From positions 384,001-448,000 of the forward strand of contig OY759599.1 in the NCBI GenBank assembly GCA_963662465.1: a stretch of 64,000 nt of DNA, given 5' to 3'. Position numbers: made by a program. Of this stretch, positions 18,001-27,000 are shown piece by piece. Origin of the DNA: Desulfatiglandales bacterium. Its GTDB lineage: Bacteria > Desulfobacterota > DSM-4660 > Desulfatiglandales > Desulfatiglandaceae. Numbering within the stretch: the stretch's first letter is position 1; the number at the start of each line of letters is the position of its first letter.

Positions 18001-21000
18001 GGCTTCACGGCAATCCGCGAAGAGGCAAGATGACCCATAGCGGTTTAACGTGAACCGTGGATTGAAACCCTTCGATGAATTTCACCATATTTTCATCAAA
18101 ATAAATGCTCCTACAAAAAAACCTATTGACTTTTTCATTTTTTCGGAATAGCGAATGATTGAATTGAGTCAGCGCTATGATTTTGCGATTAACGTGAAAC
18201 TTGTTTCTGATGATGGTTTCACGGGGCCTGTAGGTGCGGCTTCAGCCGCACAGCATTGCTTTTTTAGGTTGTTCTTTTTGCGAAGTGTTCCGATTGTGTT
18301 GTACTCCGATTGTAGGTGCGACTTTAGTCGCACATTTCATTACGTTTTGCAATGCTTTCAAAAGGTTTTGGGGTCGGGTGATTTAATGAGGAGGGAAGGG
18401 CGGTGAAAAAAGAGATGAATCGGTTTTTAACGATTTGGGCGATTGGTTTGGCCGTGGTTTGCCTGTCTTTTGGAGCCCATGGGCGTGCGGCGGAAAAAGA
18501 CTGTAATGTGTTCATCAGTTGCGGGAATCCCTACGACTGCTGCAACAATGGAACCCAGGAACAGGACGGCAACTGCACCTGGTGGGCGTGGAAGATGATG
18601 TATGACCGGTGGGGGTATCGGGCGCCCACCTGGCACAATGCCGGTCAAGTATGGTTGGATGGCGCGCAACAGGCTGGGTTGCCCACGGGTGATGGAAATT
18701 CTCCCAGAGTCGGGTCCGTTTTTGTCCAATCCGGGCATGTGGGGTGGGTTTTCAAGGTGGACGGGAATACCATCTACACCACTCAAATGAACTGCGGATA
18801 TCCGGACCAGTACACTAGCGAACAGAACGATTACAAAACCTATGACATTACTACGCAAACGTTCCTGGGTTTCATCTATCCGCCGGACGGCTCCGGGCCG
18901 GTGCCGGATACGGGTGTGACAAAATGTTATGACACGGCCGGAAACGTCATCATCTGTCCGGATTCCGGTGAGGACTATTACGGCCAGGACGGCAATTACA
19001 CCATCAACCCGCCGTCCTATACCAAGCTGGATTCGCAGGGTTATGTTCTATCGGTTGCCGCCACATCCTGGGCCATGGTTCTAGACAATGTCACCGGGCT
19101 GTACTGGGAGGCGAAACAGAACAAGGACGGTGCCTCACATTACGATAATCCCCATGATGCCGACAATACCTATAACTGGTACGACGCGCAGAATATCTTC
19201 ATCAAGGCCCTAAACGACGCCAATTTCGGCGGCCATTGCGACTGGCGTTTGCCCACCAACAAGGAGCTGGCTTTTCTGGTGGATTACAGCATCGCGTATC
19301 CGGGGCCGACCATCAACATGACCTATTTTGCGAATACGGTGTCGTCCTATTACTGGTCGTCTACTACCTATGCCAATACTCCGGACGACGCCTGGCTCGT
19401 CGATTTCTACGATGGCTACCGCCTCTGGTACTGTAAGTCCTACAGCGATTACGTTCGGGCGGTTCGCGGCGGACAGTGATCGATTATTCGGTAATTTGAT
19501 GCTTTGTTCATTTGGAGCTGAAAATCTTGGCAAGGTATGAACATCTACCCCTATACAAAGCGGCCATGGACATGGGAGTCTATCTCGAAGGTATGGTCCA
19601 TAACTTCAGCCGGTATCACAAATATACCACCGGTCAGGAACTGCGTAGCCTGGCCCGCGAAATCATCAAGCTTATCATCTGGGCCAATTCGGTCCGGGAT
19701 AGGAGCGACATCCTGTCGGAACTGGTGATCCAGTGCGAAATGCTCAAGACCATGCTCTTTTTTGCCAAGGAAACCAAGGCGATTCAGAGCTTCAAGGCAT
19801 TTTAGCACGCCTCCGGTCTGGCGGTGTTGCTTTGCAGACAGAGCGAGGGCTGGCTTAAAAGCAGTCGAAAGGGCCCGAATCGCCCACCCCCGGATGGGAA
19901 AGGGGGGCCGGCGAGTGCGCCATGAACACTGTGCGCCTCCCCCGCCTGGCGGTTCATGCAGGCATATTCATGCAGGGCGTGGAGGGATCCGCGCCCGGTG
20001 GAAGGAAATTCATTGCGGCCTGCACAGCTGTGGGTGCGACTGTAGGTGCGACTTCAGTCGCACAGCAACGTCGTGCGCCAATACCGGGTATGGCTTGTGC
20101 GAATAAATTCGCACCTACAGTGCAACCGTCCCGACGGCGGATGTTTTGACCCCGGGATGGGTTGTGCGGCTGAAGCCGCACCTACAGCACAGTGCCACAG
20201 CACAGCGCTATTGTGGGTTTCCTTCATCAAGTGGGGAGGTGATGGTGTCGTCCAATTACTGGTCGTCTACTACCAATGCCAATAATCCGAACAACGCCTG
20301 GAACGTCAATTTCAACAATGGCAACGACAACTGGAACAATAAGTCCAACAACAATTACGTTCGGGCGGTTCGCGGCGGAAAGTGTTCCCCTGCTGTCCTT
20401 CCGGTCAATTTATGATGCGTATCTGGATTGCCGAAGGAGAAAGCGCAATACCATCAACGCGCTCAGGTTTGAGGCCGATTTGTTGACCAACCTCTTTGAC
20501 CTGGCGCTGGACCTGCAAAAGGGACGGTATCAGCCCTCCCGCTCTGTCTGCTTTGTCACACGGTCCCCGAAGCTCCGCGAGGTATTCGCCGCGGACTTCA
20601 GGGACCGGATCGTTCATCATCTGGTGGTGCGGGAACTGGAGAAGATATGGGAACCGCGCTTTATTTATGATTCTTATGCGTCCAGAAAAGGGAAAGGCAT
20701 CCACTCGGCCGTGGACCGGCTTCAGGGATTCATGCGGAAGGTGACCCGCAACGGCAAGCGGGCCGGCTTTTTTCTGCAACTGGACATTCGGTCTTTCTTC
20801 ATGAGTATAGACAAACGCATTTTGTTTTCCCTGTTTGACCGGGACCGGAAAACATCGGATGTGCTGCGGTGGGTTTTGTCGGTACTCATTTTTCATGATC
20901 CCACGACGAATTATTGTTTCAAGGGAAACGGGAGATTGCTGGACGCCATTCCGCCCCATAAAACTCTTTTCAAGACCGGCCTGTACAAAGGGCTCCCTAT

Positions 21001-24000: not shown

Positions 24001-27000
24001 TGGATCATTTGGTCATTTCGGTGCCGGCGGGCGCCCAGTCGGTTGGGGATGATTTTACCATCACCGTCACCGCCGAGGATGCGGCAGGGCTGCAGGTGCT
24101 GGATTTTGCGGGTAGCGTGAACCTTTCGGCCGAGGGGAATACCGTTGACCCCACCGCAGTGACCCTCTCCGGCGGGCATGGGAGCGCGTCCATTCGCATC
24201 TTGAACGTCGGCAAAACCCGGCTCAACTGCGACGGTTATGGGGCCTACGGCAACAGCCGGTATTTTGACGTGGCCGGGGAGAATCCCTGCATCGGGTCCA
24301 TCGAGGGGAGCGTGGTGGACTGCCGGGGCACCCGCGTGAGCCAGGCCACGGTGCGGGCCCGTGACGTGGAAGGGGACGTGATGGCGAGCACCACCACGGA
24401 CGGTAACGGAAGGTTTACGCTGGCAGACTTGACCTGCGGGCCGTATGATATCGAGGTTGAAAAATCCGGCAAAACCGCCACCGGCATCTGGAAGACGGTG
24501 GGCGGACATTACTGCACCACGGCCTTCGGGATCGAGCTGCCTTTGAACTGCGGAACTGAACAAGCGGTGGTGGTATTGGTCCCCGGCATCATGGGGTCCA
24601 GCGAATCGTCATGGGGGGGGGTTCCCAGCTTGCCGGCCGGTGCACCGGCACGCGCTTCGGATTTGCACATTCATGCCGAGGGGACAACCGGTTTTAAAAA
24701 ACTCAAAGAAGAACTGGAAGCGGCAAATTTTACCGTGGTGGAGTGTCCCTGGGACTGGCGGCTCAATTGTGAGCGGGCCTACCGGGAATACCTGAAGGAC
24801 AAAATAGACGAAGCCCTGGCGGATTCAGGCGCCGACAAGGTGTATGTGGTGGCCCACAGCATGGGGGGGCTTATGGTACGGGCCTACATTCAGAACAAGG
24901 AGAATTATCGGAACGACATCGCCAAAGTGGCCTTTGTGGGCACCCCGCATCAGGGGTCCTGCAATCCCTATTACATCTGGGAGGGGGGCGATCCCCTGGC
25001 GGTCGACGATATGGTCGGTCCGGCACTGGACTTTTATACGCGGACCACCGAGAAATTGTGGGGGAATTACAAGAGAGGCTGGAACACTGAAAACCACGAT
25101 GAGATCCGTTCGTTTATCAGAAGCGACGTGCAGTCCCTGCTGCAACTGATGTATGCGGAAAAATTCCTGACGGATATGCGTTCTTACTGGGCCGTGGAAA
25201 CCCCCGGCAATACCAACGACTGGCTGGACGACTTAAACGAAGGCGATGGGAATTACAACAAGCCGTACGATGTCATGAGCAAGGACGGTTCAAGCGGCAA
25301 CAAGGTGGAGGCCCGGTGCTTTGTGGGAGATTCGGCTGCTTCCACCATTCGGTGGGTCAAGATGGCCCGCACGAGAGGCAGTTCCGGGGCTACCGATGAC
25401 CGGTATGAGGACGGTATTCCACGAAATGAACGGCCTCAGAAAGATAACGTTTTATGGGGAAGCGGCGACAATACGGTTCCCTATGACAGCGCCGTTTATC
25501 CTTACACGAAGGGCTGGGCCCAATTGTGCGCGAAAAAATCCCAAAAAAAACACAGTGAACTGGTGAAGGATTTTGCGACGGACATCGTGCTTTTTTTGGA
25601 CCCCGATGCAGTGGTTTCCTCAAATGCCGCCACAAGGGATGACCCGACTCCGCCCGAACTGTCGGTTTCCATCACCGGCGGGATGCGCGTCCAGATCATA
25701 GATCCCGAGAACCGCAAAACCGGCGCCGACCCGGCCACGGGCCTGCCGGTGCAAAATATCCCCGATTCTATGTGCGCCTTTGATGTGGGAGGCGGCGGCG
25801 CGGCGGTGCAAAGCCCCGCGGCCGGGGCCTACCGGATCACTTATTTTGGCCAGGCGGACCGGGATTTCCAGATCTCGCTAGACTACCAGGATGACACCCT
25901 GACGGAGACCTACAGCTTTCAGGGGTTTCGGCCGGCAGACGCACAGACCTTTACCGTGAGTCTCAACCCCGCAGCCTCTCCCCGTCTCACCATCACCCCG
26001 TCCTGCAAGGCTCCCACCAATCTGGAGGCCAACCCCTACACGTCCGGCGAAACCCCGAAAACCCGCCTTTCCTGGTCCGCAACGGACGAAGCCGGCCTTT
26101 CCGGCTACAATGTCTATGGGGTGGCCCAACTGTCTCCCTATTTCTCCAAAGTGGCCACCGTGGCATCGAATGTCACCACTTATGATACATCAGACACCTG
26201 GAGTTCCGATGCCGCCACCACTGTCATGACCTATGCGGTGACGGCGGTGAAAACCGACGGCACGGAAAGCTTTTTTTCCAATACGGCCCAGAACGATGAC
26301 CGGGACCATGACGGCGTGACCGACGCACGGGAAGCAACAGACGGCACCAACCCGGACAACCCGGATTCGGACGCGGATGGCCTGAATGACGGGAAAGAAT
26401 CGGCATACGGTACCAACCCCCTGGTGAAGGACACGGACGGGGATACCTGGAATGACGGCGATGAAGTATCCGCCGGCACCGATCTCCTGGATCCTTATTC
26501 CATACCCCGAAGCGTGGGGTATGTGGACCCGGCCGGTGGCTGCAACGGCAACACCCCGTGCTACACAACCATACAGGCGGCCGTGGAAGGCGCCAAAAAC
26601 GGGGGCGTTGTTGAGATTAAGCAGGGAACCTATAGCGAAGAAGTGACGCTCGGGGCTGACAAGCAGGTGATGCTTCAGGGGAATTGGAACGATTCATTTA
26701 ACACCCAGAGCGGCATAACGACGCTGACGCACGCACCCAAAGCGCCCCTGGGGCGATTGACGCTGCGGGATCTGCTGGTGAAACCGTGAGGGGCACATGG
26801 AGACGGGAGCTGGTTGCGGATGTAGGTGCGTCTTCAGCCGCACAGCTTGTGCGACTAAAGTCGCACCTACAGCCCGGGCTGAAACATATTCAAAGCGCGG
26901 TTTCACGTTAATCCGCGATGAACCGTTTCATGGAGCGGGCGTATCGGGCAGCCTGACCCGGAGAAGCTTCAAAGGTTAATTGATCCACATACTCCTTTTT

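Follow-up and report, generated by a model that had tools for sequence, protein, structure and literature searches.

Does a chromosomal diversity-generating retroelement (DGR) of this Desulfatiglandales bacterium redirect the binding domains of exported hydrolases, and is it still able to do so? The locus was analysed within a window of 64,000 nt, i.e., the whole stretch of DNA under study, to which all positions refer (window position 1 is position 384,001 of contig OY759599.1); remote sites are given in contig numbering.

Organization of the locus

From 5' to 3', the locus comprises a small target gene, avd, the template repeat (TR), a reverse transcriptase (RT) fused to a MutS domain I module (MutS_I), and a large target gene. 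The RT (20276..22009, + strand) is a 577-aa ORF whose only in-frame ATG, GTG or TTG starts lie within the TR. Pfam confirms the RVT_1 domain named in the survey's finding (aa 100-301, with YVDD at aa 274) and places MutS_I at aa 479-560 (1.5e-11). The protein also carries an IGNLTSQ stretch; the motif I/LGxxxSQ is a hallmark of DGR RTs. MutS_I is likewise reported on three related RTs in Wu 2018 (PMC5758913).

The locus is a genuine chromosomal DGR of the CLec2/DUF1566 class, as follows from the adenine-specific differences between the TR and three variable repeats (VRs), the RT with YVDD and IGNLTSQ, the Avd homologue encoded beside the TR, the Lcl_C domains of the targets, and the match in layout, TR length, CLec2 class and MutS_I-bearing RT with a DGR of an uncultured Desulfobacterium, as listed in Table S1 of Wu 2018.

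Template and variable repeats

A repeat search of the window yielded a 151-nt family with three copies (19327-19477, 20233-20383 and 23832-23982). The TR (20244..20383, + strand) has 41 A and, read in the frame of the VRs, 17 AAY codons in its mutagenised part (20244-20357), which is followed by a GC-rich, IMH*-like 3' end (20358-20383). VR1 (19338..19477, + strand) makes up the final 47 codons of target 1, whereas VR2 (23843..23982, + strand) is internal and covers aa 110-157 of the 1091-aa target 2. In ungapped comparison with the 140-nt core (TR 20244-20383), VR1 exhibits 22 differences, 21 at TR adenines plus a change of G20326 to C, and VR2 exhibits 19, every one of them at a TR adenine; given an A content of 36% in the mutagenised 114 nt, the probability of 19 of 19 is 3.6e-9. 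The survey's finding had counted 23 differences over 144 bp for VR1, 21 of them at adenines, which is reproduced exactly with the longer TR 20244-20387 (21 at A, 1 at G, 1 at T), as is its count of 19 of 19 over 140 bp for VR2. Both of the VRs that it had assigned to the cassette are thus confirmed, but the total is three: a further VR for the same TR is situated 188 kb off and beyond the window (contig 591990-592129; 23 of 25 differences at adenines), in an intact ORF for a protein of 203 aa with no obvious leader.

At position 20380 the TR has A and every VR has C, a pattern that would fit the distinction between IMH* and IMH. The codons AAG, ACT and ACC and most TAC codons are invariant across all three VRs, which may be read as selection on the VRs.

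The two target enzymes

Target gene 1 (18403..19479, + strand) encodes 358 aa with a hydrophobic leader, a CHAP amidase/peptidase domain (aa 55-130; 4.6e-9, 37.1 bits against a cut-off of 26) and a lectin-fold Lcl_C/DUF1566 domain (aa 225-355; 1.9e-31) that ends in VR1, so that the Pfam domains agree with those of the survey. Its reading that the catalytic Cys and His are kept also holds: among 121 relatives, 119 of them called CHAP by Pfam, Cys58 is invariant and His112 is conserved in at least 90%. The CHAP part of the model has a pLDDT above 90 and matches solved CHAP folds, namely the phi812 hub (9eum), PcsB (4cgk), PlyPy (5udm) and LysK CHAPK (4csh). The relatives of the module carry choline-binding, SLH, ricin or Bsp-like cell-wall-binding modules or the PcsB coiled coil.

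Target gene 2 (23514..26789, + strand) encodes a leader, an N-terminal Lcl_C domain (33-153) that holds VR2, an Ig-like part and CarboxypepD_reg (262-321), an LCAT/lipase-like alpha/beta hydrolase at about 350-700, beta-sandwich domains, TSP3 repeats and a C-terminal domain. The matches of Pfam, which include Abhydrolase_1 (352-481), LCAT (404-492) and TSP3_bac, are as the survey had given them. Ser449 (in AHSMGG), Asp652 and His680 are near-invariant across 30 relatives, and matches to PDB sequences sit at the nucleophile elbow. Over blocks covering 371-700 the pLDDT is mostly 73-96, with dips to 58-68 at 491-530 and 561-570; the modelled fold matches the lipase BlEst2, LPLA2, LCAT, Tle4 and Pseudomonas lipases. 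The lectin domains of both targets, and with them the VR surface, are modelled at low confidence.

With the leaders of both proteins read by eye from the translations and the catalytic residues intact, the two window targets are supported as predicted exported enzyme fusions. The claim that they are secreted lytic enzymes with a reprogrammed recognition module is thereby borne out in part, namely for the leaders, the hydrolase domains, the catalytic residues and the fold matches.

Distribution of the cassette

Among 80 loci that encode homologues of the target 2 hydrolase, 19 possess Lcl_C, and six of these have a DGR RT in the flank; the layout of small target, TR, RT and lipase is repeated in six of the 80, in other lineages. 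In L035, L045, L051 and L067, adenine bias marks a VR of the small target upstream as well as one in the hydrolase's N-terminal Lcl_C, and L058 has one adenine-biased VR. Of 53 protein relatives of the hydrolase, 22 carry PF07603. The lipase-type target is evidently an ancestral and conserved part of a cassette family in several lineages and no one-off, which gives it more weight than the survey was aware of.

The CHAP fusion has a different history. A paralogue in the same genome (P0125) is 58% identical to target 1 from the leader through FLGFIYPPDGS, and the homology ceases exactly where the small-target module starts. The 80 related loci yielded no CHAP. On both counts the CHAP module is best regarded as a graft from a paralogue of this genome onto the small target. 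A combination of CHAP and Lcl_C is nearly unique, being found in target 1 and in one truncated metagenomic relative, and by all appearances it was invented locally and is rare. Among 40 related genomes, none gave a CHAP match either, so that the fusion is without comparative support for its function.

State of the cassette

The gene avd (19512..19925, + strand) contains an in-frame TAG at 19803-19805, which ends the ORF at 97 aa; beyond it the frame stays open as far as a TGA (19923-19925), and the conserved C-terminal helix can still be read from it. In tblastn, the Avd proteins of related cassettes align in one frame across the TAG; that of L035 is 61% identical over 122 aa and is the one Avd with a residue aligned at the TAG, a Q. 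The stop removes the last 27 residues or so, a segment conserved in four homologues. The bAvd domain noted by the survey is upheld as an Avd homologue (NCBIfam DivGenRetAVD, 9e-8, profile positions 1-81 of 104) but in an interrupted gene and, because the TAG cuts it, with a bAvd score of 33.3, under the Pfam cut-off of 40. No tRNA with a CUA anticodon, i.e., no amber suppressor, is found among the 48 tRNAs of the genome.

Mobile sequences have entered the locus as well. Two REP-like palindromic units of repeat family D2 (21383..21482, + strand; REP matches at 21401 and 21461) lie in frame in the linker between RT and MutS_I (aa 376-383 and 397-403); in an alignment with six related RTs and the RT of the second DGR of this genome, the related RTs lack this stretch. 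Between RT and target 2, a REP cluster (22011..23271; repeat families D2-D7) surrounds the gene of a REP-associated tyrosine transposase (RAYT; 22317-22796, + strand; NCBIfam REP_Tyr_transpos, 1.8e-40, 138 bits against a cut-off of 80). The DGR locus (contig 401923-410849) holds 20 of the 128 REP copies of the genome.

The second DGR exists as reported in the survey, since 14 of 14 and 21 of 21 differences lie at A; it is, however, evidently defunct, because losses associated with the adjacent IS have taken the TR 3' end and the N-terminus of the RT (about 140 aa). Its Avd (147 aa, 42% identical) is intact.

Because the amber stop precedes the conserved last helix of Avd, the window cassette is probably inactive today or dependent on the intact Avd of the second DGR. 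We consider it slightly better than an even bet that the DGR is broken, with three fossil VRs and enzymes of fixed specificity, a state compatible with any functional reading. Besides the TAG without a suppressor, the RAYT/REP invasion with REP units in the RT linker, the destruction of the second DGR beside an IS, the single non-adenine change in VR1 and an identical VR1 in a contig from a second sample point that way. Against it, no lesion is seen in the RT-MutS_I ORF, the TR or any of the three target ORFs, the second Avd might act in trans, and the avd frame is undecayed past the TAG, so that the lesion is either recent or a base-call error.

Possible function

By the established DGR pathway, TR RNA would be reverse-transcribed by the RT with Avd, with misincorporation opposite adenines, and the cDNA would replace a VR, with the GC-rich 3' end that TR and VR have in common as its guide, such that 17 AAY codons of a lectin-fold ligand-binding surface could be recoded in three genes. 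The lectin would then do the aiming and the hydrolase would be the payload, and diversification would change the surface ligand to which the enzyme is tethered. This ligand would most likely be found on foreign cell envelopes, where the lipase would attack membranes and CHAP the underlying wall. Against this, a Sec leader by itself takes a protein of a diderm no further than the periplasm, and the peptidoglycan of a competitor is not exposed. An antagonistic, antibacterial role of the targets is plausible at somewhat under even chances. Exported CHAP and lipase-like enzymes retargeted by a DGR, in a cassette that is now probably inactive, constitute the best overall explanation, on which we would put evenly balanced confidence; if it is true, lytic enzymes are retargetable by a mutagenic RT cassette.

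The neighbours of the cassette are IS21, AbiEii, helicases and unknowns, with neither an immunity gene nor a secretion system among the flanking genes. The missing adjacent immunity gene would suit enzymes that a variable lectin tethers to dead cells, wall fragments, lipid-rich detritus or sheath material, widening the scavenging of a sediment heterotroph. The domain logic fits this equally, the Ig-like part, CarboxypepD_reg and the calcium-binding TSP3 repeats of target 2 are the build of extracellular polymer-degrading enzymes, and lineages of anaerobic sediment and groundwater widely carry the cassette. Since a scavenging enzyme seldom has use for as many as 20^17 possible specificities, and no gene of the locus is tied to uptake or catabolism, substrate capture is nevertheless rather unlikely.

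The last 90 aa or so of target 2 (26499..26786, + strand) are common to 28 other places in the genome, almost always at the extreme C-terminus of leader-bearing proteins (27 of the 29 genomic matches fall no more than 25 aa from the C-terminus, the majority in proteins with leaders), and also occur on a double-CHAP paralogue. They have no Pfam match at E up to 0.01 and are a candidate sorting domain, which counts in favour of export. Sorting to the surface would agree with recognition displayed on a filamentous, multicellular-type bacterium, the hydrolases remodelling its own envelope or matrix at contact sites, and the small targets of related cassettes are indeed plain proteins of leader plus Lcl_C, while Wu 2018 (PMC5758913) describes known CLec2 targets, LdtA among them, as lipoproteins of the surface. 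A hypervariable aiming domain is, however, ill-suited to a fixed self ligand, and the relatives of CHAP are typically enzymes of lysis or cell separation that bear wall-binding modules, which makes such a self or kin function improbable. Least probable by far is that the lectins bind phage and the hydrolases inactivate particles or alter receptors. Although an antigen-sensing role has been proposed for DGR targets of multicellular bacteria, the sensors described in that source (PMC10907252) are cytoplasmic STAND/vWA systems; tailed phages offer no obvious substrate for CHAP or a lipase, and the cassette has no co-conserved defence genes.

Comparison with known systems

The locus is most similar to the DGR of the uncultured Desulfobacterium sp. 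(FR695874.1), which, as listed in Table S1 of Wu 2018 (PMC5758913), has the order TG-AVD-TR-RT-TG, VRs of the CLec2 class, DUF1566 targets, a 140-nt TR and a C-terminal MutS_I on the RT. There both targets are listed as plain DUF1566 proteins with C-terminal VRs, whereas here one target has CHAP and the other an internal VR2 followed by about 930 aa including the lipase-like hydrolase; the remote third target, the RAYT/REP insertion and the avd stop are further differences. The Legionella pneumophila DGR resembles the locus in its variable domain of CLec2/DUF1566 type, in a target that is exported to the surface and in the MutS-like function that goes with the cassette. According to the description in Wu 2018, LdtA is a lipoprotein without an enzyme domain, unlike the window targets, and the MutS-like protein there (MSL) has a gene of its own instead of being joined to the RT as in this locus.

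The claim that CHAP and lipase targets are a new use of DGRs has to be narrowed: enzyme-fused targets as such (orthocaspase, kinase, CHAT/TIR, STAND) have already been described (PMC7517822, PMC10907252), but neither a CHAP nor a lipase target was found named in any paper or supplement. The cyanobacterial kinase and orthocaspase targets (PMC7517822) and the Thiohalocapsa STAND, vWA and CHAT/TIR targets (PMC10907252) also unite a C-type-lectin-fold sensor and a catalytic domain in one polypeptide. As described in these sources, they act in signalling or conflict in the cytoplasm, belong to the FGE/CLec1 type and have their VRs at the C-terminus, whereas the window targets have export leaders and predicted envelope-degrading hydrolases.

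Concerning the enzymes, target 2 shares the alpha/beta-hydrolase fold and the GXSXG nucleophile elbow with LCAT, lysosomal phospholipase A2, bacterial lipases and the T6SS effector Tle4 (4r1d; a phospholipase), but at an identity of only 12-16% and with neither T6SS context nor immunity partner, its hydrolase being embedded in a 1091-aa multidomain protein predicted to be exported. Target 1 equals the CHAP lysins (LysK CHAPK, PlyPy, PcsB, phi812 hub) in its CHAP fold, its Cys-His pair and its design of a catalytic plus a binding module; instead of a fixed choline-binding, SH3b or SLH module, however, it possesses a lectin fold rewritten by a retroelement.

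Template and variable repeats

A repeat search of the window returned three copies of one repeat (19327-19477, 20233-20383 and 23832-23982), and in an ungapped comparison of the three the middle copy acts as the template. Against this template repeat (TR, 20244-20383), the variable repeat of the first target gene (VR1, 19338-19477) exhibits 22 differences, 21 of them at TR adenines and one at G20326, and that of the second target gene (VR2, 23843-23982) exhibits 19, all of them at TR adenines (P = 3.6e-9, with A making up 36% of the 114-nt mutagenised stretch). The counts behind the survey's finding were reproduced: recounting VR1 over 144 nt gave the same 23 differences, 21 of them at A, and the 19 of 19 reported for VR2 agree with the recount over the 140-nt core. 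Read in the frame of the VRs, the TR contains 17 AAY codons, and the last 26 nt are GC-rich and the same in all copies except at 20380 (A in the TR, C in every VR). The repeat set is typical of the TR of a diversity-generating retroelement (DGR) with IMH*/IMH ends.

Searching with the TR through the whole 8.16-Mb genome yielded a further copy with the same 3' end, VR3 (contig 591990-592129), which is situated 188 kb downstream of the cassette and differs from the TR at 25 sites, 23 of them adenines. It closes a 203-aa ORF that consists of an Lcl_C domain alone, without obvious leader, and is surrounded by toxin-antitoxin genes. One DGR with two variable repeats had been proposed; both repeats are confirmed, but because of the copy outside the window the element has three targets, not two. 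Each of the VRs lies within an Lcl_C (DUF1566) domain (1.9e-31, 4.2e-36 and 6.8e-36 over the VRs), whose C-type-lectin fold is here assigned from the profile match, the pLDDT of Lcl_C being below 50 in both structure models. Three lectin-fold domains thus share a history of adenine-specific diversification from one template, the differences being almost only at TR adenines (21/22 in VR1, 19/19 in VR2 and 23/25 in VR3).

Reverse transcriptase and its MutS domain

Beside the TR lies the gene of a DGR-type reverse transcriptase (RT; 20276-22009, 577 aa), with an RVT_1 match (4.5e-16), YVDD at aa 274 and, at aa 242-248, the sequence IGNLTSQ, which we take to be a hallmark stretch of DGR RTs. In-frame start codons of this ORF occur only inside the TR. 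Compared with the RTs of four related cassettes (L035, L045, L051 and L067, i.e., those with adenine-biased VRs in both targets) it shows 39-53% identity, measured over the whole query for the first three, whereas the RT of L067 aligns in two segments with 35% and 67%.

The C-terminal extension of the RT had been overlooked in the survey's finding. It carries MutS domain I (MutS_I; aa 479-560, window 21710-21955; 1.5e-11, 44.9 bits vs. a cut-off of 20.6), fused to the RT. Within it, the aromatic-x-Glu stretch GRYVELY (aa 500-506), presumably the MutS mismatch-binding motif, is kept in all five homologues that retain MutS_I, the second DGR of this genome among them, and would fit mismatch binding during homing. 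On a tentative and rather doubtful reading, the fused domain would protect or resolve the A-mismatched heteroduplex in homing; the fusion offers a handle on the processing of the mismatched cDNA:target intermediate.

State of the element

For the accessory gene avd (at 19512), Avd proteins of related cassettes give an alignment of 122 aa that stays in a single frame of the window (61% identical in the case of L035). Inside this alignment an in-frame TAG is found at 19803-19805, where the Avd of L035, the sole homologue with a residue aligned at this position, has Gln. Past the TAG the frame continues for 39 more codons and still encodes the segment CRQSEGWLKSS, conserved in four homologues; the stop removes around 27 conserved residues, such that avd is not intact and the last helix is absent as annotated. 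Pyrrolysine or amber read-through of the TAG is argued against by ARAGORN, which found no tRNA with a CUA anticodon (amber suppressor) among the 48 tRNAs of the whole genome. A 114-aa ORF at 19762-20106 without Pfam match was treated as a frame over the avd tail and REPs. Intact copies remain of the RT-MutS_I ORF, of the TR and of every target ORF. Recent inactivation of the element in this genome is probable, and because of the stop in avd this locus is the weaker model.

As a speculation, the Avd of the second DGR, which is intact (147 aa) and 42% identical to the window Avd, might serve the window RT. This paralogous element, found outside the window at L017 (contig 3594000-3612000), is laid out in the same way, but its large target is another protein (1504 aa, CARDB and fn3). 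It had been listed as a second DGR with an IS, and its VRs are indeed adenine-biased (14/14 and 21/21 differences at adenines); however, with the IS between TR and RT it is dead, its RT being without around 140 N-terminal residues and the homology of its TR to its own VRs ending after 102-104 nt, beside the IS, with the 3' end lost.

The read data consisted of assembled Logan contigs of three runs from one study, which break at 20358, 23872 and 23958, i.e., at repeat borders. One contig from a second sample is identical to the window over 19070-19477. Contig joints such as 17893 to 26903 were discounted, since their sides of around 21 nt fall within REPs. A contig of 2312 nt with a depth of 9-14 (vs. 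30-45) is around 85% identical to the RT and VR2 region (window 20358-21130, 21605-21732 and 23782-23980). Where the window has the 2-kb RAYT/REP stretch, it carries 631 different nt, which points to a co-occurring strain whose related cassette lacks the RAYT insertion.

The CHAP target

Target 1 (18403-19479, 358 aa) begins with a hydrophobic leader, followed by a CHAP domain (aa 55-130) and by Lcl_C/DUF1566 (aa 225-355), which ends in VR1. The CHAP match, considered short at the outset, withstands closer inspection: it reaches 37.1 bits vs. a cut-off of 26 (PF05257), the catalytic Cys58 and His112 are kept, and the model matches the fold of CHAP lysins. A HMMER search of 1.84 billion representatives returned 434 relatives at E <=1e-3; three only have E <=1e-30, namely target 1 itself, its truncated metagenomic relative P0007 and a paralogue encoded elsewhere in this genome. 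Of the best 150 relatives, 121 were scanned (29 were left out for size); Pfam identifies CHAP in 119 of them, and across the 121 Cys58 never varies and His112 is conserved in at least 90%. In the AlphaFold model built from the alignment of these relatives, block means are 92-97 at aa 61-130 and 141-160 and 72-84 elsewhere in aa 31-160, and Foldseek (E 8e-6 to 1e-3) matches it to the phi812 hub CHAP, PcsB, PlyPy, an S. aureus amidase and LysK CHAPK. Gsp amidase is also among the fold matches, and some CHAP relatives act on other amides. As modelled, fold and catalytic residues carry the assignment as CHAP, the substrate being predicted. A sequence search of the PDB gave no match for the whole of target 1 and a single weak one for its CHAP part (phage tail-tip lysin, E 0.08). 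A joint alignment of CHAP and Lcl_C relatives misaligned the CHAP proteins and was not used for folding. CHAP relatives possess fixed wall-binding modules where target 1 has the variable lectin.

The lipase-like target and its cassette family

In target 2 (23514-26789, 1091 aa) a leader is followed by Lcl_C with VR2 (aa 110-157), Ig-like and CarboxypepD_reg domains, an LCAT/lipase-like alpha/beta hydrolase, beta-sandwich domains, TSP3 repeats and a C-terminal domain of around 90 aa. The reported LCAT lipase domain is borne out (PF02450 and PF00561; LCAT 52.3 bits vs. 21): the triad Ser449, Asp652 and His680, with the GXSXG elbow AHSMGG around the serine, is near-invariant in 30 relatives, and sequence matches in the PDB fall at the nucleophile elbow of lipases and LCAT. 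Block-mean pLDDT is mostly 73-96 over aa 371-700 (58-68 at 491-530 and 561-570), and the fold matches comprise BlEst2, lysosomal phospholipase A2, LCAT, the T6SS phospholipase Tle4 and Pseudomonas/Burkholderia lipases. The hydrolase assignment likewise holds as regards fold and catalytic residues, with a putative substrate. The DNA search with the TR did not match a paralogue of target 2 with Lcl_C and LCAT (P0276, 1455 aa, contig around 6.76 Mb), whose hydrolase region is 57% identical, so this TR does not seem to act on it.

Of the protein relatives of the hydrolase region, 22 of 53 also carry PF07603. A scan with one genome per species covered 80 hydrolase loci, 19 of them with Lcl_C, and in six of these 19 the flank that was available also encodes a DGR RT (L035, L037, L045, L051, L058 and L067); the six are recorded as Thermodesulfobacteriota, Deltaproteobacteria, Nitrospiraceae/Nitrospirae, an unclassified Proteobacteria MAG and Geobacter. 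Apart from L058 (one pair only) and L037 (a 4.9-kb contig), each of these loci has one TR with adenine-biased repeats in two places, the small target upstream and the N-terminal Lcl_C of the protein with the hydrolase, with 18-24 mismatches per pair, 18-24 of them at A. Because the related loci have the layout of the window, the lipase-type target belongs to the ancestral design of the cassette family, and the lipase arrangement is conserved across lineages.

Origin of the CHAP fusion

In the related cassettes, the small target upstream is a plain protein of 185-232 aa with leader and Lcl_C. CHAP was found neither in the 80 related loci (tblastn) nor in 40 related genomes, and patterns of the CHAP module in metagenomes led to 16 loci, none of which has Lcl_C, RT or hydrolase. 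A word-index search of 5.8 billion clusters returned as close relatives of target 1 only itself and P0007, which sits on a 2.7-kb contig and is truncated at the contig end. Elsewhere in the same genome, the exported-type protein P0125 (799 aa) contains CHAP twice and shares the C-terminal domain of target 2; between the leader and FLGFIYPPDGS it has 58% identity with target 1, and the similarity ends exactly at the start of the small-target module (PDTG..KCYD). Target 1 looks like a leader and CHAP module set before a pre-existing DGR target, a fusion that, from these searches, appears nearly unique. P0125 (locus L028, contig 3738000-3752000) adjoins P0126, an exported-type M23 peptidase of 822 aa (Peptidase_M23, DUF5648 and PKD), and the two form a second wall-hydrolase pair beside IS91-type and DDE transposases.

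Export and the C-terminal domain

Both target 1 and target 2 begin with leaders, as read by eye. The last 96 aa of target 2 (window 26499-26786) match 28 other places in the genome (e.g., contig 2003671-2004405, 3129561-3135116 and 3743361-3745760), and in 27 of the 29 matches, itself counted, the domain ends <=25 aa before the stop codon. Most of these ORFs begin with a hydrophobic leader, and the carriers include the double-CHAP paralogue P0125 and another Lcl_C protein. The domain starts with Cys..PCY..IQ.A and often ends ...L.L....[IV].P; it had no match in Pfam, and the ESM Atlas offered nothing but clusters without a name (0.90-0.91) and DUF1565 (0.88). It is a candidate for a lineage-specific sorting or secretion domain, and as such supports an extracytoplasmic fate for target 2, a location past the outer membrane not being implied.

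Genomic surroundings

Between RT and target 2, a RAYT gene (NF047646, 138 bits vs. 80) is situated together with a cluster of REPs. The REPs here fall into families D2-D7; at <=3 mismatches the genome has 128 copies of this REP, mostly doublets, 20 of which cluster at the DGR (window 17923-26849, contig 401923-410849). The three RAYT matches of the genome (this one, contig 2784362-2784820 and a fragment at 3606737-3606841, beside the second DGR) all adjoin DGR or Lcl_C loci. Two REP palindromes lie in frame in the linker between RT and MutS_I (window 21383-21482), adding around 45 residues compared with homologous RTs and leaving the ORF open. An ORF at 18155-18406 overlaps REPs and was set aside. 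Upstream (window 10890-14266), an IS21-type pair (Mu-transposase C-terminal domain and IstB) and ParB/HTH genes are found, and downstream (window 27112-28093) an AbiEii toxin gene and a DUF6922 gene; the cassette sits in a region that looks mobile. Rfam gave no match at gathering level in 16000-28000, and promoter and terminator scans gave no excess over shuffles.

Possible function

The locus is a real DGR with two hydrolase domains, their catalytic residues intact, joined to diversified lectins. Following the established DGR pathway, mutagenic retrohoming by RT and Avd would rewrite the ligand-binding face; by the logic of the domains, the lectin would aim and the hydrolase act, so that diversification would shift where the enzyme is tethered. 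Foreign cell envelopes are the target of tethering that we prefer, with somewhat less than even confidence. Neither an immunity gene nor a secretion system was found beside the cassette, so the reading as a weapon gets no such support; scavenging on particulate substrates appears unlikely as the function, and a role at the surface of the cell itself or its kin quite improbable.

Tethering to foreign envelopes would, in its widest form, mean that the DGR of a cassette family of anaerobic lineages (Thermodesulfobacteriota, Nitrospirota and Geobacter relatives) re-aims an exported phospholipase-like enzyme, here also a grafted CHAP peptidoglycan amidase, at the changing surface ligands of other cells, a proposal that is tentative and rather doubtful as a whole. 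The lipase would breach the membrane and the amidase the wall. If true, this would constitute a diversifying, antibody-like targeting system for lytic enzymes, and an antagonistic role would be a natural precedent for retargetable lysins. To our knowledge, no function is known for most cellular DGR targets, since they consist of binding domains alone and offer no activity to assay. In this locus two enzymes with simple predicted read-outs (peptidoglycan cleavage and ester/phospholipid hydrolysis) are attached to the variable lectin, and other lineages have the lipase version again in intact cassettes; what chromosomal DGRs aim at therefore becomes directly testable.

Comparison with known DGRs

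A new use of DGRs had been claimed for this locus. Enzyme-fused targets as such are in print, namely cytoplasmic kinases, orthocaspases, CHAT/TIR and STAND proteins (in the available parts of PMC7517822 and PMC10907252), and a 2024 survey in BMC Genomics lists 'alpha/beta hydrolase fold' among rare targets without CLec domain. Exported hydrolases as targets, however, were not found: CHAP, amidase, lipase or LCAT do not occur as DGR targets in the accessible portions of the main text and supplement of Wu 2018 and of the text and 13 supplements of Roux 2021, nor in the text and six supplements of the BMC Genomics survey, nor in full-text literature searches, whose scope excluded bioRxiv supplements and subscription journals. 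The accessible supplements of Roux 2021 have no match to CHAP, lipase, hydrolase, DUF1566 or a Pfam accession, an absence that is weak because the available part of its target table gives no domain names. Whereas the known kinase, orthocaspase, CHAT/TIR and STAND targets are cytoplasmic signalling or conflict proteins, those of this locus are exported hydrolases; the class of DGR is known, and exported hydrolases are an undescribed kind of target.

Concerning the class, the sections of Wu 2018 (PMC5758913) at hand report in the main text three RTs with MutS_I, plus the MSL accessory family, and in Table S1 a DGR of Magnetobacterium whose DUF1566 VR is internal and whose RT carries MutS_I. The same part of Table S1 contains a DGR of an uncultured Desulfobacterium (TG-AVD-TR-RT-TG), which shares with this locus the layout, CLec2, the TR length of 140 nt and the MutS_I RT.
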